Shown: positions 1,871-25,698 of the stretch, piece by piece
Layout: each line of letters begins with the position of its first letter
How positions within the stretch are numbered: the first letter of the stretch is position 1
The notes under the pieces: generated by a model
The model's input: the letters and a program-made list of their open reading frames with translations, nothing else
Told to the model about the DNA's origin: nothing
Databases searched by the model: none
Source of the DNA: Deinococcus radiodurans R1 = ATCC 13939 = DSM 20539
GTDB lineage: Bacteria > Deinococcota > Deinococci > Deinococcales > Deinococcaceae
Reading direction: 5' to 3'
Length of the DNA: 32,000 bases
Assembly: GCF_000008565.1 (NCBI RefSeq)
Contig: NC_001263.1
Span: 40,906 to 72,905, forward strand
Made by a program: the position numbers and the translations under genes

Positions 1871-2994
1871 GCCCGGTGTTCCTCCTGCGCCTCGGTGACG
1901 GTCGCCAGGAACTCGCGGTCAAGGGTCACGCCCGTGCCCGGCCCCTGCGGCACTGGCATCAGGCCGTCCACGGCTTCGAGCGGCTCCTGAATCAGGTCGC
2001 GCTCCCAGTAGCGGCTGGCCGAACTGGTGTCGCCCGGCAAGCGGAAGTTGGGCAGCGTCGAGAGGTGGATGTTGTGCGCCCGCCCGATGCCGCTCTCCAA
2101 CATCCCGCCGCACCACACCGGGGCGCCGAAGCTCTGGGCCACGTCATGCACGCGCCGCGATTCGGCGTGTCCGCCCACGCGGGCCACCTTGAGGTTGATG
2201 ACGCCGCCCGCGCCCAGTGCCAGCGCCTTGCGGGCGTCCGCCGCCGACGCCACCGACTCGTCGAGGCACAGCGGCGTGCGGATGCGCCGGGCGAGTTCGG
2301 CGTGGTCTACGAGGTCGTCCCAGGCGAGCGGCTGCTCGATGTAGGTCAGGTCGTACTCGTCGAGTTGCCGCAGCCGCCCGGCGTCGGCCAGGGTGTAGGC
2401 GCTGTTGGCGTCCACCGTCAGGCGAATGTCGGGAAAGGCTTCACGGGTCGCCCGTACCGGCTGCACGTCCCAGCCGGGCTTGATCTTGAGCTTGATGCGG
2501 CGGTAGCCCTGCTCGACATGCTTTCGCACGAGGTCCACCGTCGCCTGCTCGCCCGCCTGAATGCCGAGGCTGACCCCCACCTCGACCTGCTCCTTGTGGC
2601 CGCCGAGCAGTGTCCCGAGCGGCACCCCCAGCGTGCGCGCCCACAGGTCCCAGGCCGCCATCTCGACCATCGCCCGTGCCATGCGGTTGCCCCGGTAGCT
2701 GCCGAGCGCGTCCGCCACCGCTTCGGGGTTGGCGAAGGTCTGCCCCAGGATGGCGGGCAAAAAGGTGCCGCGCAGCAGGTCCAGTGCCCCGGCAATCGTT
2801 TCCTCGCGGTACATGGGCCGCGCTTCCATGGTGCCCTCGGCGACGCCCTGCACGCCCTCACCGTGCAGAATCAGCAGCGGCACCACCTTGTGGGTTTGCA
2901 CCCCGAAACTCGTTTCAAAGCGGAACTTGAGCGGCAGCCGCGCCACGACGATTTCAGCAGCTTCAATTTTGAACATACGGCCAGTATGCGCCAT
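1867..2994 (-). CDS. N-acyl/N-succinyl amino acid racemase (NSAR/OSBS subgroup, enolase superfamily)
   Basis: The 375-aa product ([32 protein letters not shown]...KLKIKPGWD...DANSAY...IEQPL...LDES...KVARVGG) matches my memory of the crystallised D. radiodurans NAAAR almost residue for residue. The MR/MLE metal and KxK motifs are present. Confidence 0.92.
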
Positions 2995-3024
2995 CCGGCG
3001 GAGGCACCCCAGCTTTTATCCGGG

Positions 3025-3030
3025 TAAAAT
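3025..3030 (+). promoter_or_regulatory. -10 box (TAAAAT) placed for a leaderless transcript
   Basis: TAAAAT lies 6 nt upstream of the ATG at 3037. No Shine-Dalgarno sequence lies between them. Confidence 0.5.
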
Positions 3031-3036
3031 CTGGAC

Positions 3037-3615
3037 ATGACGGAACCCACTCTGACGGTTTTTGCCGGAGAAAAGCGGCTGCTGACCGGCTCCCTGCGCG
3101 AGGTGCTGACCTATCTCAAGGTGCAGGAGCCTGCGCAGGTGCTGATTTTCGATGACCAGACGGGCCGGCCGCGCGACTTCGACCTGTCGGGCTCGCTGGA
3201 GGACGTGCTGGCGCGCGAATTGCCGGGCGCGCCCGCCGGCTCGCTGAAACCGGGGCGCCCGAAGCTGGGCGTGGTCGCCCGCGAAATCACGCTGCTGCCC
3301 CGGCACTGGGCCTGGCTGGAAGCGCAGCCGGGCGGGGCGTCGGCGGCCCTGCGGAGATTGATCGACGAGGAGCGGCGCCGCCACCCCGGAGCCGAGGCCG
3401 CGTCGCAGGCTCAGGCCGCCGCCGACCGCTTTCTGAGCGCGGGCTGGGGTGACCTGCCCGGTTACGAGGACGCAAGCCGCGCCCTGTACGCCCGCGACGA
3501 GGCGCGGTTCCTGGCGCTGAGCGAAGGCTGGCCTGCCGATGTCCGTGCCCACGCGCTCGGGCTGGCGGCACCGGCCTTTGCGCCGCAGGGGACTGTGGCG
3601 GATGATGAGGCTTAG
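3037..3615 (+). CDS. Conserved hypothetical protein, DUF2239-like
   Basis: 192 aa. The block GRPKLGVVAREITLLPRHWAWLEAQPGGASAALRRLIDE matches the DUF2239 signature as I remember it. Confidence 0.6.
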   Translation: MTEPTLTVFAGEKRLLTGSLREVLTYLKVQEPAQVLIFDDQTGRPRDFDLSGSLEDVLARELPGAPAGSLKPGRPKLGVVAREITLLPRHWAWLEAQPGGASAALRRLIDEERRRHPGAEAASQAQAAADRFLSAGWGDLPGYEDASRALYARDEARFLALSEGWPADVRAHALGLAAPAFAPQGTVADDEA

Positions 3616-4197
3616 ATGACTGGCCCTGCGACCCCCGCTGCCGAGCTGACCCGGCTGGCGCACTCGCCCGACCCGGCGCTGCGGGCAGCGGTGGCCGGGC
3701 ACCCCAACACACCGCCAGAGACCCTGGCCGCGCTGGGGGCCGAGTTTCCCGCCGAGGTGCTGGGCAACCCGGCGCTGCCGCTGCTGCGCCTCGCCCAGCC
3801 GGGGTTGCTGGCCCGCTGGCCTGTGCGGACGCTCGAAGCTCTGGCCGCGGCCCCGGCAGCCCCCGTCTGGTTGCTGCGGCTCGCGGCGGCGCACGAGAAG
3901 ATTGACGTGCAACTCGCCGCCGTGACCCGCCCTGACCTGCCGGGCGACGTGCTGTTAAAGCTCTCGCACTCGCCCTTCTGGACCATCCGCGAGGCGGTGG
4001 CGCGCAAACCGCAGTTGCCGCCGGGCGTGCTGGGGCAGCTCGGGCACGACCTCGACTACGGCGTGCGGCTGTCGGTGGCGAACCGCAGCGACCTGTCCCG
4101 CGAATTGCGCGGGGCGCTGCGCCGTGACCCGCATCCGCTGGTGCGGGCGGTGGTCATTCTGGGTGAGCCGCAGGTCAGCGAACTCAGTCTCTCTTGA
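3616..4197 (+). CDS. Leucine-rich-repeat-variant (LRV/HEAT-like) repeat protein
   Basis: 193 aa with repeated units of the type L..SPDP.LR.AVA.HPNTPPE.L..L. The ATG abuts the upstream TAG (TAGATG), indicating translational coupling. Confidence 0.55.
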   Translation: MTGPATPAAELTRLAHSPDPALRAAVAGHPNTPPETLAALGAEFPAEVLGNPALPLLRLAQPGLLARWPVRTLEALAAAPAAPVWLLRLAAAHEKIDVQLAAVTRPDLPGDVLLKLSHSPFWTIREAVARKPQLPPGVLGQLGHDLDYGVRLSVANRSDLSRELRGALRRDPHPLVRAVVILGEPQVSELSLS

Positions 4198-4218
4198 TGG
4201 GTTTACCTTGAGGGCCGC

Positions 4219-4416
4219 ATGACTCCTGAGTTTCTCCGCCGCCGCAACGCCCTGTGGGCGAAACTGCGCTCGCTGCCGCCCGGCTCGCCCGAGTTCGAGA
4301 CGGTGCTCGGCGACCTCGCGCAGCTCATCGGCTGGGACCGGCCACGAATTCTGGCGGGGCTCGGTCTAAACGAGCCGGACAGTGAGTCGAATATGTCCCC
4401 CGGAGAGCGGCCATGA
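4219..4416 (+). CDS. Small hypothetical protein (65 aa)
   Basis: GAGGG lies 4 nt upstream of the ATG. GC3 is high over most of the ORF. Its stop overlaps the next gene's start (ATGA at 4413-4416). Confidence 0.45.
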   Translation: MTPEFLRRRNALWAKLRSLPPGSPEFETVLGDLAQLIGWDRPRILAGLGLNEPDSESNMSPGERP

Positions 4417-5177
4417 GCAGCGGGGGCGGCGCGCAGGCGGTGCAGTCGCTCGACTGGCAGCGGATGTTCCTCGGCGATTACGATCTGCTGTTTTACGTCG
4501 AAATCGTCATTCGGACGCTCATCATTCTGGTGTGGCTGCTGGCGCTGCTGCGGGTGGCGGGCAAACGCGGGGTCTCACAGCTCAGCCCGCTCGAACTCGC
4601 CATCGTCATCGGGCTGGGCTCGGCGGTGGGCGACGCGATGTTCTACGCCGAGGTGCCGCTGGTGCACGCCATGCTGGTGATGGCGCTGGTGGTCGGGTTT
4701 CAGCGGCTGGTCGCGCACCTCATCATCTCGCAGGAAAAGGTCGAGACGTTTCTGGAAGGCACGCCCGTCGAACTCGTCCGCGACGGTGTGATGCAGCTCG
4801 GTGGCCTGAAGCGTTCGGCGCTGAGCTACGAGGACCTCTTCGAGCGCCTGCGACCCGAGGGTGTGCGGCAGCTCGGGCAGGTGCAGCGCGCCTATTTCGA
4901 GCAAGACGGGCAGCTCTCGGTGTTCTGCCATCCAGATGGCAAGGCCCCGCCCGGCCTGCCTATCGTGCCGCCGTGGGACCTGGAAGTGCCGGCCCCGCCA
5001 CCCGACCACTACGCCGGCCTGCTGGCTTGCCTGCGTTGTGGCCGCATCCACGAGCAGTCAGCGGAGGAGTTACCCGTGCCCTGCGGCTGCGGCGGGACCG
5101 CCTGGACACCCGCTGTGCTCGACAGCCTGAGCGGCGACGCGGGCCAGGATAAGAGCCGAGACAAGAGGGGAGACTAA
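4413..5177 (+). CDS. DUF421 (YetF-like) membrane protein with a C-terminal Cys-rich ribbon
   Basis: 254 aa. N-terminal transmembrane segments and the [29 protein letters not shown] motif are typical of DUF421. The C-terminus carries CLRC-x15-CGC. Confidence 0.65.
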
Positions 5178-6464: not shown

Positions 6465-6986
6465 TTACTCGCGCCAGATGGCCCAGTGGTCGTCGAGCGC
6501 GTCCATCTGTTCGGGCGTGCGTCCGCCGAGGCGCAGCAGGCTCAAGACCTGCCCCCGGTGGTGGCTGTCGTGGACGATGATGTGCTGCAAAAAGTGAGCA
6601 GGGTTGGACTGGTAGGTGCCCTCGCTGTGCGGGTCGGGAAACGTGCGGCCCTCCGCCAGCGCCGACTGCACGGCCCGCAGCGCCGCCTCGTCGCCCAGAC
6701 GAAACGCCTCGGCCAGCTTGGAAAGGTCGCGCTCGGAGAGGTCGAACTTTTGCCAGGTGCCCTCGATGACATCGGGGATTCCCTCGGCGTCGGCGGGCGA
6801 AATGGCACTCAGCCAGCCGGGGCGAAAGTGGGCGAGGTGGCCGAGGTGCTGGCCCACCGTCCAGCCGCCGCGCCCGTCGGACAGGTCGAGGTCGGCGGGG
6901 GTCAGGGCGGCGAGCAAGGTGTCGTTGACGCGGCCATTGCGGCGGAAGGATTCGAGCAGGAGGTCGATGTTCGTATTGTTTGGCAT
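6465..6986 (-). CDS. DinB-family (DinB_2/YfiT-fold) protein
   Basis: The real start is the internal ATG at 6984-6986, with GGAGG 6 nt upstream. This gives 173 aa (MPNNTNIDLL...). Conserved His residues (GQHLGHLAHF, HDSHHRGQ) are typical of the four-helix DinB fold. The 309-aa track ORF is an artefactual 5' extension across the next gene. Confidence 0.75.
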   Translation of the reverse strand: MPNNTNIDLLLESFRRNGRVNDTLLAALTPADLDLSDGRGGWTVGQHLGHLAHFRPGWLSAISPADAEGIPDVIEGTWQKFDLSERDLSKLAEAFRLGDEAALRAVQSALAEGRTFPDPHSEGTYQSNPAHFLQHIIVHDSHHRGQVLSLLRLGGRTPEQMDALDDHWAIWRE

Positions 6987-7006
6987 GGATTCCTCCAGGG
7001 GAGCGG

Positions 7007-7363
7007 TCAGGGGCGGGCTTTCCACGGCATCGGACAGGAGGCGCGGCAGTCCGGAGTGGCCCTGCCGGGAAATGGTTGGCCGAACGAGCGGTTGCAGGCG
7101 CAGCGCAGCGGGGTGTTGGGATTGTTCAGGACGCGAAAACGCGGAGGCTTGAGCCGGTCGCCATAGTCCAGGGTCGCGCCGTACAGGACGCTTGCTGCCT
7201 CCGGAGAAAATCTTAACTCCACGCTCTCCTCGCTGAACACCATGTCGTTTTCCTGCCGTGTCAGGGCGAAAGCGTAGGCCGTGCCACAACACCCGCCCGG
7301 TTCCAGCGAGATTCGCAGCACCCCACCTAGAGCACAAATCTGCTCCCGTGCCGCTGGTGTCAC
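7007..7363 (-). CDS. IscA/HesB-family iron-sulfur cluster carrier-like protein; the true start is possibly ATT at 7373-7375
   Basis: Aligns by eye along its length with E. coli IscA: LRISLEPGGCCGTAY corresponds to LRLGVRTSGCSGMAY, and CACNRSF to CGCGESF. The three Cys ligand positions are conserved. Confidence 0.7.
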   Translation of the reverse strand: MTPAAREQICALGGVLRISLEPGGCCGTAYAFALTRQENDMVFSEESVELRFSPEAASVLYGATLDYGDRLKPPRFRVLNNPNTPLRCACNRSFGQPFPGRATPDCRASCPMPWKARP

Positions 7364-7390
7364 ACGTATCCGAATGAGCTATCACCTCCA

Positions 7391-8146
7391 TCAAGTTCGG
7401 TGGTGGGCCAGTCGGGATGCCTCTGCTTCTCCTGCTCTCATCAAACGCCGTCCGGCCTGGTACAGGTCCAGATTTCCGGCGGGTGTGGACTGGTCCGGCA
7501 GGGTCAGCACGTCCTCGAAACCGATGCGGCTCTCAAAGCCCAGAGCGGCGGCGCGGCGCAGAAGCGGCCAGGTCGCGTCGTCGATTCCATGCGCCAGCCG
7601 GGGCAGGTCGGGGCGGAAGTCATTCAGGGCGCCTAGCAGGATAGTCAATTCGGCGTGGGCCGTGTCGGGGTCGCCAGAGAGCGGTTCCAGCAGGACGCGC
7701 CGCCAGCTCAGGTGCTGGAGCGTGCGGAACTTCTGCACGTCAGCGGGCGTCCACAGCCCCGCTTCCAGGGCGACGCCCCGTGCCTCCGCCAGCGCCAGCA
7801 CGTCGTCTATGCCGGTTTCGGACAGGTTGACGCAGAGGGTGTCGGGCCACGCTGTCCATCCGGCAACCAGTCGGGCACGTTCGGCAGGCGTGGCGGCTAT
7901 GCCCTCGGCGGTGCTGATGGCGAGTTCCGCGTCGGGACAGACCGCACGAATGGCGTGCAGCGTGTCGGCCACCGCTTCCGGCGCCAGGGTCTGCTGGCCG
8001 CCCCGGTAGACGTGCAGGTGAAAGGCCCGCGCCCCCGCCGCGAACAGTTGCGCCACGTCGCGGGTGAGTTCGGCGGGGGTGTGGGGCACCGCCGGGTGCT
8101 CGGCCTGGCTGCGCGCCCCGTTGAGGCAGACTTGCAAAGAAGGCAC
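7391..8146 (-). CDS. Beta-keto acid cleavage enzyme family protein (BKACE/DUF849, 3-keto-5-aminohexanoate cleavage-like)
   Basis: 251 aa. The N-terminal LNGARSQAEHPAVPHTPAEL plus the HLHVY motif is characteristic of DUF849 TIM-barrel enzymes. The GTG start lies 2 nt after the upstream TAA. Confidence 0.65.
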   Translation of the reverse strand: MPSLQVCLNGARSQAEHPAVPHTPAELTRDVAQLFAAGARAFHLHVYRGGQQTLAPEAVADTLHAIRAVCPDAELAISTAEGIAATPAERARLVAGWTAWPDTLCVNLSETGIDDVLALAEARGVALEAGLWTPADVQKFRTLQHLSWRRVLLEPLSGDPDTAHAELTILLGALNDFRPDLPRLAHGIDDATWPLLRRAAALGFESRIGFEDVLTLPDQSTPAGNLDLYQAGRRLMRAGEAEASRLAHHRT

Positions 8147-8148
8147 GC

Positions 8149-8643
8149 TTACCCCAGCGGCGGCAGGTTGCGGCGTTCGTAGAAGGCGGGCGGGGTCACG
8201 CCGAGTTCGCGCAGGTACACGTAGCCCTGGCCCCGGTGGTGGACCTCGTTGTCAATCAAATACATCACGCTCATCAGCGGCGACATCTTCCCGAAGGGGG
8301 TGGTGGCCGGGGTCGCCCACATCTCAGTGCTTACCTGCGGCACTTCGGCGCCCAGCTCGGCAGTCAACTTGTCCCACCACGCGAGCAGCTCGGCGCGGCC
8401 CGGCAGCTCCTTTTTCTGGTCGTTCTCGTCCCAGGTCGGCTGACCCCGCCGGAACCAGTCGAGCTGGTACTCCACCATGCCCGCCAGTTCGCAGGCCATC
8501 GCCTGAAAGGGGCGCATGTCGGGGGCGTGGTGGGCGGCAAAGCCCTCCTCCGGGAAAGCCTCGATGACCCGGCGGGTCAGGTCGCGGTGGCCCTGCCAGT
8601 GGGCGAGCAGTTCGGCGGGAGACAGCAGCAGTTTGTCGCTCAT
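8149..8643 (-). CDS. DinB-family protein, first gene of the four-gene operon (possibly the radiation-induced ddrR)
   Basis: 164 aa with LAHWQGHRD...LIDNEVHHRGQ, typical of the DinB superfamily. GGAGG lies 7 nt upstream of the ATG. Counting genes between the racemase and ddrB places it at the locus I recall as ddrR. That assignment is from memory and unverified. Confidence 0.75.
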   Translation of the reverse strand: MSDKLLLSPAELLAHWQGHRDLTRRVIEAFPEEGFAAHHAPDMRPFQAMACELAGMVEYQLDWFRRGQPTWDENDQKKELPGRAELLAWWDKLTAELGAEVPQVSTEMWATPATTPFGKMSPLMSVMYLIDNEVHHRGQGYVYLRELGVTPPAFYERRNLPPLG

Positions 8644-8656
8644 TTCCTTTTCCTCC

Positions 8657-8673
8657 TGATGGACTCAGCGTAA
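8657..8673 (-). promoter_or_regulatory. Weak RDRM-like 17-mer upstream of the DinB operon
   Basis: The minus strand reads TTACGCTGAGTCCATCA. The left half (TTACGC) fits the RDRM half-site. The right half (CCATCA) fits ACRTAA at 4 of 6 positions. It matches the ddrB site at 9 of 17 positions. Confidence 0.25.
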
Positions 8674-8740
8674 AAGCGATTCCCGACAGGACATGACGTA
8701 TTTCGCAATGGGGTCGGCTCCCTCCCCGGTTCAACGTCCT

Positions 8741-8746
8741 TAGACT
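8741..8746 (+). promoter_or_regulatory. -10 box (TAGACT) placed for a leaderless transcript
   Basis: TAGACT lies 5 nt upstream of the ATG at 8752, with no SD sequence. Confidence 0.45.
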
Positions 8747-8751
8747 GGGGC

Positions 8752-9087
8752 ATGTCCGACCTGAAACTGGTGCTGCATGTCTCCGAAGCCGACCGCTGGC
8801 ACGCCGTGCTGAGCAACCTCGTCAACCTGACCGCGTTGGAGGACCGGCCCGAGGTGCGCGTGGTGGTCAACGGCTCGGCGGTGTACGTGCTGCAAGGCGA
8901 ACACGACCAGCTCGCGCAGATGGCGAAAGCGGCAGCGGCGGGCGTGACCTTTCAGATTTGCAATAACTCGCTCAGGGCGCACGACATCCCGGCGGCCAAC
9001 CTGCCGAACTGGGCGCAGACGGTCCCGGCGGGCGTGCTGGCGCTGGCGGAGGCGCAGCGGGGCGGCTTTGCGTACATCAAGCCGTGA
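8752..9087 (+). CDS. DsrE/DsrF-like family protein (COG1416-like)
   Basis: 111 aa. The pattern LKLVLHVSEAD...VVVNGSAV...FQICNNSL...VPAGVLALAE...GFAYIKP is typical of the small DsrE-like fold. Confidence 0.6.
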   Translation: MSDLKLVLHVSEADRWHAVLSNLVNLTALEDRPEVRVVVNGSAVYVLQGEHDQLAQMAKAAAAGVTFQICNNSLRAHDIPAANLPNWAQTVPAGVLALAEAQRGGFAYIKP

Positions 9088-10034
9088 CCTACGACCCCTC
9101 GCTGCGGGTGCTGACCGTGCTGGAGCTGCTTCAGGCGCGCGAGGAAGTCACGGGCGCCGAGCTCGCGCGGCGGCTGGAGGTCAGCCCGCGCACCGTGCAG
9201 CGCTACGTGGCCCGCTTGCAGGACCTGGGGATTCCGGTGGAGGGCCGCCGGGGAGTGGGCGGCGCGTACCGCCTGAAACCCGGCTTTCGCCTGCCGCCGC
9301 TGATGTTTACCGGCGAGGAGGCACTTGCGCTCGCGCTGGGGCTGCGTGCGCTGCAACACCTCGGCCTGAGCGACCTGCTGCCCGCCGCCGAGGTGGCCGG
9401 CGCCAAGCTCTCGCGCACGCTGCCGCCGGAACTGCGCGACACAGTGGCGGCGCTGGAGCAGGTCGCGCAGCTCAGCGTCTCGCCCTGGGTGACGAGCACC
9501 GACGCCCGGCTGCTGACCACGCTGTTTCAGGCAGCGCGTGAGGGGCAGCGGGCCGAGCTGACCTACCGCTCCGGCGCGGCGCAGCACACCGAGCGCGAGG
9601 TGGAGGTCTACCGCGTGGTGCACGTGGACGGACGCTGGTACGCGGTGGGCCACTGCCGACTGCGCGGGGCGCTGCGCTGTTTCCGGCTCGACCGCATCGA
9701 AACGTGTCGGCTGCGCGAAGAAACGTTCACGCCGCCCGCCGACTTCGACGCGCTCGCCTTTTTGCAGCAGGAACTGCCCGCCGCCCATCCTTACGAAATC
9801 AGCGTGTGGCTCGCGGCGCCGCCTGAGCACCTGCGCGGCGCGGTGTCCGTCTGGCACACCGACCTTCGTGCCGAGGAGGACGGCACCCGCATGACCTGTC
9901 AGCGTGAGAACCTGCACAGCTTCGCCGCCTTTTTGCTCGGCGTGGGCGTGGACTTCCGGGTGGACTCGCCGCCCGAACTGCGCGAGGTGCTGCGGACCCT
10001 GGCCGGGCGCTGCCAGCAGGCGGGGGAGGGGTGA
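9084..10034 (+). CDS. WYL-domain transcriptional regulator (wHTH-WYL-WCX; YafY/PafBC/DriD-type architecture)
   Basis: 316 aa. N-terminal HTH (LRVLTVLELLQAREEVTGAELARRLEVSPRTVQRYVARLQDLGIPV) and a central WYL core (VYRVVHVDGRWYAVGHCRLRGALRCFRLDRI). Its GTG overlaps the DsrE-like TGA (GTGA). Confidence 0.85.
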   Translation: MTYDPSLRVLTVLELLQAREEVTGAELARRLEVSPRTVQRYVARLQDLGIPVEGRRGVGGAYRLKPGFRLPPLMFTGEEALALALGLRALQHLGLSDLLPAAEVAGAKLSRTLPPELRDTVAALEQVAQLSVSPWVTSTDARLLTTLFQAAREGQRAELTYRSGAAQHTEREVEVYRVVHVDGRWYAVGHCRLRGALRCFRLDRIETCRLREETFTPPADFDALAFLQQELPAAHPYEISVWLAAPPEHLRGAVSVWHTDLRAEEDGTRMTCQRENLHSFAAFLLGVGVDFRVDSPPELREVLRTLAGRCQQAGEG

Positions 10035-11464: not shown

Positions 11465-11719
11465 TCAGGCCTCCTGTTCGCGCAGCAGCCGCAGCTTGAG
11501 CGTGCTCAGGCGCGAGCGGCTCAGCACACCGCGCAGCAGCACCCGGTCCCCCAGCGCCAGCACCGGAATGTGGTCGCCGTGCCGGGCAGTCAGTGCCGCG
11601 TCACCGCTGATGTCGTGCAGCTGGTAAGCAAAGCCGAGTTCGTCCAGATGCGTCTGCGCCTGCTCGCACAGGTGGCAGCCGGGGCGGTGGTAGAGGGTGA
11701 GGGTGGGGAGGGGGGTCAT
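11465..11719 (-). CDS. Glutaredoxin-like protein (DUF836/Grx2-like, thioredoxin fold)
   Basis: 84 aa. CHLC redox motif at the end of the first strand (LTLYHRPGCHLCEQA) and a later IPVL element. Confidence 0.65.
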   Translation of the reverse strand: MTPLPTLTLYHRPGCHLCEQAQTHLDELGFAYQLHDISGDAALTARHGDHIPVLALGDRVLLRGVLSRSRLSTLKLRLLREQEA

Positions 11720-11740
11720 AGGGGAACTCGGTGAAAAAGC

Positions 11741-13516
<1,776 letters not shown>

Positions 13517-25043: not shown

Positions 25044-25103
25044 AGGTCTTGGTGCCCGGCCTCTGCTGGGAGGCGGGACACTGGCACCGGCTTCCCCGAT
25101 GTG

Positions 25104-25120
25104 TTATGTTATTTACGTAA
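25104..25120 (+). promoter_or_regulatory. RDRM (radiation/desiccation response motif; DdrO operator) of ddrB
   Basis: TTATGTTATTTACGTAA is a 17-bp palindromic-type site fitting the RDRM consensus (TTATGT-N5-ACGTAA). It sits immediately upstream of the GGAGGAGG SD and the ATG at 25132. Confidence 0.9.
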
Positions 25121-25131
25121 GGAGGAGGCAG

Positions 25132-25698
25132 ATGTTGCAGATTGAATTTATCACCGACCTGGGTGCGCGGGTCACGGTGAACGTGGAGCATGAAAGCCGG
25201 TTGCTGGACGTACAGCGCCACTATGGCCGCCTGGGCTGGACCAGCGGCGAGATTCCGTCCGGGGGCTACCAGTTTCCCATCGAGAACGAGGCCGACTTCG
25301 ACTGGTCGCTGATCGGCGCCCGCAAGTGGAAGAGCCCCGAGGGCGAAGAACTCGTCATTCACCGGGGCCACGCCTACCGCCGCCGCGAACTCGAAGCCGT
25401 GGACAGCCGCAAGCTCAAGCTGCCTGCCGCCATCAAGTACAGCCGCGGCGCCAAGGTCAGCGACCCGCAGCACGTGCGCGAAAAGGCCGATGGCGACATC
25501 GAATACGTCAGCCTCGCCATCTTCCGCGGTGGCAAGCGGCAGGAGCGCTACGCGGTGCCCGGCGGCGCGGCGGGGAACGGTCAGGGTCGCCCGGCGCCCC
25601 AGGGACAGCCCGCCCAGGCCCGTCCCCAGGCCACTGCCGCTCGCCCCGCCGCTCGGCCCCCGGTGCAGCCCGGTCAGGAAGAAGAAACGCCGTTCTGA
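25132..25698 (+). CDS. ddrB: DdrB, the Deinococcus-specific single-stranded DNA-binding / annealing protein
   Basis: MLQIEFITDLGARVTVNVEHESRLLDVQRHYGRLGWTSGEIPSGGYQFPIENEADFDW... matches my memory of D. radiodurans DdrB. It has a low-complexity Pro/Gln/Ala tail ending in an acidic tip (EEETPF). The 25099 start in the track is rejected because SD spacing fits 25132. Confidence 0.93.
   Translation: MLQIEFITDLGARVTVNVEHESRLLDVQRHYGRLGWTSGEIPSGGYQFPIENEADFDWSLIGARKWKSPEGEELVIHRGHAYRRRELEAVDSRKLKLPAAIKYSRGAKVSDPQHVREKADGDIEYVSLAIFRGGKRQERYAVPGGAAGNGQGRPAPQGQPAQARPQATAARPAARPPVQPGQEEETPF

Follow-up and report, generated by a model that had tools for sequence, protein, structure and literature searches.

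A conserved WYL regulator and promoter box at the ddrR locus of Deinococcus radiodurans

Background and summary

The locus described here lies in a stretch of 32,000 nucleotides (nt) of Deinococcus radiodurans DNA, called the window below, in which a region of six genes at 6465-10034 was surveyed. One of these genes is ddrR (DR0053), which encodes a DinB-family protein. Another, on the opposite strand, encodes DR0055, a WYL-domain transcription factor. Judging by its sequence and by the promoter it faces, DR0055 is probably an activator of the ddrR operon of the SiwR/PafBC type, switched on by single-stranded DNA (ssDNA). That it activates ddrR upon DNA damage is the reading to which the evidence moderately leans.

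What is conserved across species is a core of three parts: the WYL regulator, a common promoter box and a divergent DinB gene. The juxtaposition of WYL and DinB genes is far above chance, whereas that of all six genes is not.

Gamma rays raise the expression of dr0053 more than 200-fold, and a mutant in this gene is sensitive both to gamma rays and to mitomycin C (MMC) (PMC4338110). MMC, too, strongly induces the gene. Chromatin immunoprecipitation sequencing (ChIP-seq) gave no peak for DdrO at ddrR, and DdrR is still MMC-induced in a delta-irrE strain (PMC8533742). No regulator has been named for ddrR since this DdrO-independent induction was shown. A literature search, with most subscription journals outside its coverage, found no paper linking a WYL regulator to ddrR beyond a repressor test from 2015.

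The elements that matter most are the two genes and the parts of the region between them:

8149..8643, minus strand: ddrR (DR0053), DinB family, PF05163 with E 2.7e-45; first gene of the proposed regulated unit
9084..10034, plus strand: gene for the WYL-domain transcription factor DR0055, with a winged helix-turn-helix (wHTH), linker helices, WYL and WCX; matches HTH_11, WYL and WCX
8684..8698: 15-bp imperfect palindrome CGWCA-N5-TGWCG, on the plus strand CGACAggacaTGACG; proposed WYL operator
8667..8698, minus strand: full ddrR promoter element CGTCAtgtccTGTCGG-N10-TACGCT (palindrome, GGA triplet, -10 box)
8657..8673: weak site TGATGGACTCAGCGTAA resembling the DdrO operator, the radiation/desiccation response motif (RDRM), with 10 of 12 specified positions; overlaps the -10 box and the transcription start site (TSS)
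8708..8737, approximate limits: insertion of about 30 bp, from alignment with L001, L002, L004 and L005

The DinB protein encoded at 8149-8643 is 100% identical to PDB 6IZ2, which is DR0053/DdrR. The WYL gene starts 441 bp upstream of dr0053, exactly as PMC4338110 states for dr0055. Together these two facts identify the window as the D. radiodurans ddrR locus. A preliminary description of this DNA, made from the sequence alone, had placed the gene at the ddrR locus, and the identity to 6IZ2 proves it right.

Conservation of the WYL and DinB pair

Synteny of the six genes was examined from three anchors: WYL, BKACE and DsrE. The sample used for most counts consists of 80 loci anchored on WYL homologues, taken from species-representative genomes, in which the proteins of the window were compared by tblastn. 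Single loci are cited by an L number.

A DdrR-type DinB gene lies upstream of the WYL gene on the opposite strand in 64 of the 80 loci. In 57 it is divergent within 250 bp, and these 57 include every one of the 45 loci whose WYL identity is 54% or more. The DsrE-like, BKACE and IscA-like genes are rare by comparison, being present in 4, 3 and 1 of the 80 loci. Given this difference, the conserved unit is the WYL gene with its divergent DinB gene. Downstream of the DdrR-type gene, a homologue of the second DinB type (over 50% identity) is found at 26 loci.

WYL orthologues are 55-75% identical across many Deinococcus species, and their N-terminal 100 residues are nearly invariant. The paired loci cover Deinococcus, Deinococcales and Trueperaceae, along with metagenome-assembled genomes labelled Bryobacteraceae, Terriglobia and Acidobacteriaceae (Acidobacteriota).

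In L083 (1271-7425), the WYL gene is divergent from a ten-gene operon that includes six DinB paralogues and a BKACE gene, an extreme expansion of the WYL-DinB unit. The order is DinB, DUF3224, an unknown gene, DUF1905 and BKACE, followed by another five DinB/MST-like genes.

The promoter box and its geometry

Nearly every locus has the same consensus upstream of the DinB gene: an A/T-rich stretch, followed by CG(A/T)CA-N5-TG(A/T)CG-GGAAT-N6-TA(C)G(C)T. The palindromic part is present with at least 9 of its 10 positions in 63 of 66 DinB-upstream regions. Its distance to TAnnnT is exactly 11 nt in 62 of 63 loci. A strict regular expression, run over both strands of 1.21 Mb, matched nearly always at this intergenic position (4 matches were stray).

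The box is also visible from the other side. In 50 of the 80 loci, the 120 nt in front of the WYL gene contain a 10/10 palindrome, against 0.3% of random 120-nt windows. If 9/10 or better is accepted, this becomes 67 loci against 1% of random windows.

In the window, the element at 8667-8698 reads CGTCAtgtccTGTCGG-GAATCGCTTT-TACGCT on the minus strand, which has zero mismatches to the composite pattern. It is the only match in the 32 kb, where no further box was found at up to 2 mismatches. The part at 8667-8688, TGTCGG-GAATCGCTTT-TACGCT on the minus strand, is an exact match to tGTCgg(N10)tA(N3)T. This is the in vivo motif of PafBC, which combines a '-26 element' with a -10 box and has no -35 box (PMC8635444).

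The ddrR promoter has the -10 box TACGCT, a GGA follows its palindrome, and no -35 box was found in it. The induced TSS of dr0053 has been mapped at -20 (PMC4338110), which is position 8663 of the window, just downstream of TACGCT. D. deserti has the same hexamer 7 nt before its published TSS (-25), and counted from that TSS the palindrome spans -38 to -24. The published TSSs of both species thus fit TACGCT as the -10 box.

On the WYL side, [T/C]AnnnT is found 11 nt from the box in most loci, with the start codon 5-8 nt later. This has the look of a layout for a leaderless regulator mRNA. In the window, the insertion of about 30 bp shifts the -10 box of the DsrE-like and WYL genes from 11 to 42 nt from the palindrome. 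The insertion is present only in the window and in L087 (at 4625-4655); in L001, L002, L004 and L005 the -10 box is at 11 nt.

When the WYL and DinB genes are apart, the box stays at the DinB promoter or is duplicated there (the window, L058, L061, L062). In loci of WYL paralogues that have no DinB gene, it stays with the WYL gene. The box therefore follows both genes, as is expected of a regulator's own operator. The palindrome is the predicted operator of the WYL protein, and very likely so.

Distant WYL paralogues (43-53% identity) in L053, L059, L065, L068, L071, L074 and L080 keep the CGWCA-N5-TGWCG box, at around 7950-7990. They face NmrA-like, FAD (flavin adenine dinucleotide)-monooxygenase, major facilitator superfamily (MFS) transporter or glyoxalase genes, not DinB. 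This hints at a family of regulators with one operator type, and with possible cross-talk.

The WYL protein DR0055

DR0055 has 316 amino acids (aa), with Pfam matches to HTH_11 (1.6e-16), WYL (4.1e-21) and WCX (3.4e-7). By sequence, its best solved relatives are PafBC (E 2e-19) and PafB (E 2e-14). An AlphaFold model with a predicted local distance difference test (pLDDT) score of 81 aligns over its full length with DriD, PafB/C, CapW and BrxR. Foldseek gives 2e-15 for DriD, 1e-13 for PafB/C and about 1e-9 for CapW/BrxR. Sequence and fold thus put the protein nearer to activators (PafBC, DriD) than to repressors (CapW, BrxR).

Two pairs of arginines stand out. R36 and R40 align with R46 and R50 of PafB, which are reported to read the guanines of a GTC triplet (PMC8635444). 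In the WYL domain, the loop F200-R201-x-D203-R204 aligns with FRLSR/FRFDR of PafB/PafC, and its arginines are spaced as R204/R207 of SiwR. R36, R40, R201 and R204 are all invariant in 18 orthologues.

There is a single WYL gene, with no adjacent paralogue, in the window and in most loci. Combined with a palindromic site, this implies a homodimer.

Proposed mechanism

In the proposed mechanism, a DR0055 homodimer would bind CGWCA-N5-TGWCG (8684-8698) through its winged HTH, and R36 and R40 would read the G(T/A)C core in the way that R46 and R50 of PafB do. The box would then occupy about -38 to -24 of a ddrR promoter lacking a -35 box, at the spacing of PafBC-dependent promoters. After DNA damage the WYL domain would bind a nucleic-acid signal, most likely ssDNA. 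The regulator with its signal would recruit or adapt RNA polymerase, turning on ddrR and the genes behind it. In this strain, the co-activated genes would be BKACE, the IscA-like gene and the second DinB gene. A direct contact with RNA polymerase is favoured because the geometry is fixed on both sides.

In most species the leaderless regulator gene on the other strand, too, has its -10 box 11 nt from this box, and autoregulation is therefore probable. In Deinococcus, a DdrO operator of variable quality in addition overlaps the -10 box and TSS of ddrR. The mechanism presumes that the protein binds the box, that it activates instead of represses, that ssDNA is the signal and that the four genes are co-transcribed.

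A broader version of this idea is put forward tentatively, and is somewhat less probable than the activation of ddrR itself. Deinococcus, Trueperaceae and some Acidobacteriota may share a second, ancestral switch that is independent of DdrO and IrrE. In it, a homodimeric, PafB-like, ssDNA-sensing activator would drive two back-to-back promoters without -35 boxes from one palindrome, through a contact resembling sigma adaptation.

The other genes of the locus

Four further genes complete the region:

7391..8146, minus strand: short BKACE/DUF849-family enzyme; PF05853 with E 8e-26
7007..7363, minus strand: IscA/HesB-like A-type carrier with a Cys-containing C-terminal tail; TIGR00049 only
6465..6986, minus strand: second DinB-family protein, DinB2 type; PF05163 with E 1e-42
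8752..9087, plus strand: DsrE-like small protein, between the palindrome and the WYL gene; PF02635 at 26 bits

The preliminary description had listed six genes with their coordinates, a 108-bp gap and an overlap of two genes. A check of the open reading frames (ORFs) bears out all of this. The minus-strand genes are at 8643-8149, 8146-7391, 7363-7007 and 6986-6465, separated by 2, 27 and 20 nt. The intergenic region of 108 bp is 8644-8751, and on the plus strand the stop of the DsrE-like gene overlaps the GTG start of the WYL gene as GTGA. The family assignments also stand, since profile searches reassign none of them, although the IscA-like protein is just over the TIGR00049 cut-off and the DsrE-like protein just over that of PF02635.

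Between 6300 and 10200, no internal terminator-like site and no sigma-70-like (-35/-10) promoter was found. This, and the spacing of the genes, would be compatible with a single transcription unit for the four minus-strand genes. In D. deserti the counterpart of the second DinB gene, Deide_01100, is radiation-induced and has no TSS of its own.

The BKACE protein scores 91.4 bits on PF05853, against a gathering score of 24.8, and H43-x-H45 and a GFED motif can be seen by eye. On the NCBIfam equivalog models it reaches no more than 41 bits, where the cut-offs are 350 or higher. Being so far under all these cut-offs, it is not an orthologue of Kce or of any characterised BKACE. The gene occurs at this locus in the window, L087, L003, L004, L077 and L083 only. 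More distant homologues are found in unrelated places, and one of the homologues, P0144, is plasmid-borne.

The IscA-like protein scores 60.5 bits on TIGR00049 (cut-off 58.8), over model positions 23-105 only, and has no Pfam match. C25/C26, C88 and C90 are present by eye, which supplies the three carrier cysteines. At its C-terminus, a tail of 24 residues adds two further cysteines. Where the protein starts is ambiguous: the GTG at 7363 is 20 nt from a GGAGG, while an in-frame ATT at 7375 is 8 nt from it. At this locus the gene is confined to the window, L087 and L003.

The DsrE-like protein scores 26.0 bits on PF02635 (cut-off 22.7) and has a single cysteine, Cys70, seen by eye in an ICNNS motif. 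A -10-like TAGACT at 8741-8746 ends 5 nt before its ATG, and by this arrangement it is probably the leaderless first gene of the regulator's unit. The gene is present here only in the D. radiodurans clade (the window, L087, L001, L002, L004 and L005) and is truncated by an insertion sequence (IS) in L086. Homologues with 50-58% identity are found in Sox/sulfite-oxidation clusters, and as they lie in sulfur-oxidation contexts the D. radiodurans gene looks like a relocated sulfur-carrier gene. Two such contexts, with homologues of 54-58% identity, are L088 (2427-4336) and L089 (1-5951). They contain a SorA-like molybdoenzyme with cbb3 oxidase/cytochrome c, and SoxA/TsdA with a SoxB-like phosphoesterase and TauE.

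Both DinB proteins match PF05163 best (155 and 146 bits) and score lower on DinB_2 (47 and 52), with MST under its cut-off. A review gives the function of DdrR as unknown, and attributes the demonstrated thiol-transferase activity to the DinB_2/YfiT type, not to PF05163.

All six genes are also found in the strain L087, whose regulator is 97% identical. The orthologous locus of D. wulumuqiensis (L086) has the same flanks and two DinB genes only, without BKACE or IscA-like genes. There, at 2974-4750, a DDE transposase lies between ddrR and the WYL gene, and the DsrE-like gene is cut to a remnant of 80 aa. The ddrR promoter box of L086 is kept, with one base changed. In other species the slot behind ddrR holds DUF3224, DUF1905, GyrI-like, TfoX_N and further DinB/MST-like genes. 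The BKACE, IscA-like and DsrE-like genes are lineage-specific, interchangeable cargo and not a pathway.

The flanking genes of the region encode an rRNA methyltransferase, BenE, a glutaredoxin-like protein and a Ser/Thr kinase. At 11465-13516 of the window, the glutaredoxin-like gene (84 aa) is followed on the minus strand by the kinase gene (591 aa, with NHL repeats). This pair is syntenic in L086 and L087, and the kinase domain gives generic PD-T4-6 matches in PADLOC. A 2020 paper, which itself cites a patent, reports that co-overexpression of dr0054 and dr0055 raised the exopolysaccharide yield by about 60% (PMC6952347). This effect has no obvious tie to the model for ddrR.

DdrO and the RDRM

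The established damage switch of Deinococcus is built on the repressor DdrO and the protease IrrE. Blanchard 2017 put ddrR in the DdrO regulon by motif search, with a proposed RDRM 'starting at -30'. This site corresponds to 8657-8673. The RDRM consensus is a 17-bp palindrome, TTAyGy-N5-rCrTAA, with 12 specified positions; the site matches 10 of these, and six of the matches are the conserved -10 region.

RDRM control of ddrR was also considered as a candidate through a degenerate search. At ddrR it gave only the site at 8657-8673, with two mismatches, which does not exceed chance, as the window had 7 such sites where 7.3 were expected. Decay of the R1 site relative to that of D. deserti was ruled out, as both match 10 of 12. 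The induction of ddrR in D. deserti is IrrE-dependent.

A perfect RDRM, TTATGTTATTTACGTAA, is present elsewhere in the window at 25104-25120, at the 5' end of the DdrB ORF (25099-25698; Pfam DdrB 1.8e-64). It serves as a control for the weak ddrR site. The true start of ddrB is probably further downstream, because the mechanically assigned ORF start overlaps the RDRM.

Full 12/12 RDRMs are found at the same place as the ddrR site in L001, L004, L005 and L009, the first three of which have the DsrE-like gene. At the Trueperaceae and Acidobacteriota loci, the best overlapping 17-mers score 3-9 out of 12. Given RDRMs in Deinococcus and poor matches in the other two groups, DdrO control looks like a Deinococcus-specific overlay on an older WYL/DinB unit. 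In D. radiodurans the RDRM is weak and not bound, which makes the WYL system the likely driver of the DdrO/IrrE-independent induction of ddrR.

Weighing the evidence

Several observations weigh against DR0055 as the activator of ddrR. Appukuttan 2015 deleted dr0055 to test it as a repressor and reported a 'marginal change' in dr0053, with data not shown and the condition not stated (PMC4338110). If induced levels were measured there, DR0055 is not required in R1. The same work mapped the radiation response of plasmid fusions to -133..-266, which is inside the DsrE-like gene, while the box at -41..-55 was in all constructs, including a constitutive one. These fusions were induced only 3-4.5-fold, against more than 200-fold on the chromosome (PMC4338110). 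Induction of dr0053 by gamma rays depends on RecA, PprI and DrtR/S. A simple ssDNA-sensing activator does not predict this dependence, and the model leaves both it and the plasmid data unexplained. Many Deinococcus promoters have no clear -35 box, so that a missing -35 box is weak evidence, and a box that overlaps the -35 position is also a classic repressor site. Finally, R1 may be atypical, because the insertion parts the regulator's own promoter from the box.

The deletion result can be read in more than one way. In a delta-siwR strain the basal level of DinB is unchanged and induction alone is lost (PMC10693628). Read at the basal level alone, a deletion with this behaviour would show no more than a 'marginal change'. 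If dr0053 induction is normal without DR0055, WYL paralogues with the same box could be the cause. The preliminary description had suggested that DR0055 could control the divergent unit, and on this point the deletion is ambiguous and goes partly against it.

DR0055 could instead be a repressor of the CapW/BrxR type, which sits over the -35 position of both promoters and is released on damage, so that ddrR is derepressed. A box at about -38 to -24, common to two back-to-back promoters, is indeed how sites of repressors and autoregulators are typically laid out. Several genomes annotate the protein as 'repressor', CapW and BrxR are WYL repressors of the same fold, and the published plasmid fusion became constitutive once upstream DNA was removed. 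However, deleting dr0055 did not derepress dr0053, which is the effect that experiment was built to detect, and simple repression is thereby excluded. Nor does repression need the strict 11-nt spacing on both sides or the identity with the PafBC activator motif, and sequence and fold are nearer to PafBC/DriD than to CapW/BrxR. A repressor is unlikely. It is quite unlikely, too, that ddrR is mainly under DdrO at the weak RDRM, or under DrtR/S or RecA-dependent signalling, with the WYL box serving autoregulation only and the adjacency being historical. The dependence of dr0053 on PprI, RecA and DrtR/S and the marginal effect of the deletion fit such an arrangement, as do the IrrE dependence in D. 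deserti and the RDRM-like sites overlapping the -10 box in many Deinococcus, four of them at 12/12. Against this stands a box that remains or is duplicated at the DinB promoter when the genes part (as in the window, L058, L061 and L062). The pairing and the box are moreover present in Trueperaceae and Acidobacteriota, where no RDRM-like site overlaps the -10 box (3-9/12), and D. radiodurans ddrR has neither a DdrO ChIP peak nor a need for IrrE in its induction.

In the reading of the preliminary description, all six genes could serve one dedicated route of damage repair, based on thiol/sulfur or small-molecule chemistry and controlled by the WYL protein. Its parts would be DinB thiol transferases, beta-keto-acid cleavage by BKACE, an Fe-S carrier (IscA) and a persulfide carrier (DsrE). 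In favour of this, the four minus-strand genes follow each other closely and no terminator-like site was found among them, all six recur in the 97%-identical strain L087, and BKACE recurs in WYL-linked DinB operons of several Deinococcus lineages (L003, L004, L077, L083). The DsrE-like family is also at home in genuine sulfur-oxidation clusters elsewhere. A coherent pathway is nevertheless very unlikely: the BKACE, IscA-like and DsrE-like genes occur in few close relatives, at the low counts given above, and are absent intact in D. wulumuqiensis, where BKACE and IscA-like genes are missing altogether. Their slot holds unrelated small genes elsewhere, distant BKACE and DsrE homologues have unrelated contexts, and PF05163 DinB proteins, unlike DinB_2/YfiT, have no demonstrated thiol-transferase activity. 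Outside this strain, the six-gene set was found only in L087, and what does extend further is the WYL-DinB core. A role of the WYL protein in gating anti-phage defence, as BrxR and CapW do, is extremely improbable. Among nine proteins submitted to PADLOC, the WYL protein matches generic defence-associated WYL models and the kinase domain gives generic matches, but none of the five neighbouring cluster proteins matches any PADLOC model. The flanks are the rRNA methyltransferase, BenE, glutaredoxin-like and Ser/Thr kinase genes, no conserved defence operon was seen beside the orthologues in the 80 loci, and the conserved partner is DinB.

DR0055 as a DdrO-independent, damage-responsive regulator, which the preliminary description had also suggested, comes out of this as a strong candidate. 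This is due to the conserved pairing, the PafBC/SiwR-type promoter and the kinship with PafB, PafC and DriD. The thiol or small-molecule repair route that was to be its target does not come out with it.

Comparison with known systems

Among the closest published parallels is SiwR, which Keller et al. 2023 described in M. smegmatis (PMC10693628). It is a WYL activator that works as a homodimer, and its gene is divergent from two genes of the DinB superfamily. Its site is an imperfect palindrome upstream of the -10 box, a GGA at -26 is also required, and ssDNA is sensed via R204/R207, arginines that are essential in SiwR (PMC10693628). The comparison is with the published description of SiwR, and sequence relatedness is argued via PafB/PafC only; activation at ddrR is suggested by analogy.

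The likenesses are many. Both systems have a single-gene HTH-WYL-WCX regulator divergent from DinB-superfamily genes, and target genes induced by genotoxic stress. In both, an imperfect palindrome directly precedes the -10 box and there is a GGA around -26, which by analogy may be needed for activation here too. The arginines R38/R42 and R204/R207 of SiwR are spaced as R36/R40 and R201/R204 of DR0055. The other genes at the locus vary in both cases; in some Actinobacteria a glyoxalase-like gene lies upstream of siwR.

There are also differences. SiwR is from Actinobacteria and its partners are DinB_2/DUF664, whereas the present loci are from Deinococcota and Acidobacteriota with PF05163 partners. 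Here a 15-bp palindrome is placed symmetrically to two back-to-back promoters, and in Deinococcus a DdrO operator is overlaid. In the window a DsrE-like gene separates WYL from DinB.

PafBC of mycobacteria (Muller et al. 2021, PMC8635444; 2025, PMC11804915) shares the exact promoter motif, with its element at about -26 and no -35 box. The DNA-reading arginines are kept, PafBC is the best sequence match among solved structures, and its signal is ssDNA. It differs in being a heterodimer of paralogous chains or a fusion, where the present loci have one gene and a palindrome of two half-sites. PafBC places one HTH on DNA and the other on sigma domain 4, and does not bind DNA without RNA polymerase; the homodimer implied here would bind DNA with both HTHs. 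The PafBC regulon is large and includes recA, against one site in the 32-kb window.

DriD of Caulobacter crescentus (PMC12041258, PMC13004042) is likewise a homodimeric activator switched by ssDNA, with wHTH, 3-helix-bundle, WYL and WCX, and it is the best full-length Foldseek match (E 2e-15). Its sequence similarity is low, however (phmmer E 0.008). DriD touches beta and the C-terminal domain of alpha (alpha-CTD) of RNA polymerase from sites further upstream, and its targets are didA, bapE and recA, not DinB genes.

With the DdrO/IrrE system the locus has in common that ddrR was assigned to it by motif search, that an RDRM-like 17-mer overlaps the -10 box and TSS, and that the window has a perfect RDRM at ddrB. 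It differs in that the ddrR site is 10/12, with half of the score coming from the -10 box of a WYL-type promoter, and in the lack of DdrO binding and the IrrE-independent induction.

As SiwR has already been published as a WYL activator of divergent DinB genes, the core found here is of a known kind. What is new is the WYL-DinB module in a new phylum, with an unusually clear bidirectional promoter geometry.

Significance

DdrR is among the most strongly radiation-induced proteins of D. radiodurans, and the WYL gene with its box provides a testable candidate for its regulator. The negative result of 2015 deserves to be read again, since the deletion was scored as a test for a repressor, and the loss of an activator would look negative in uninduced cells. 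The analysis is also a warning against reading the BKACE, IscA-like and DsrE-like genes as a pathway.

If the proposed switch is real, no bidirectional arrangement of this type would have preceded it, and WYL-controlled damage responses would for the first time extend beyond Actinobacteria, Caulobacter and Moraxellaceae (Acinetobacter), the groups with published WYL activators. The paralogues with the same box would extend the switch to a small detoxification regulon (NmrA-like, monooxygenase, MFS, glyoxalase). D. radiodurans would then run two parallel damage responses triggered by ssDNA, one through a protease and a repressor, the other through a WYL activator.

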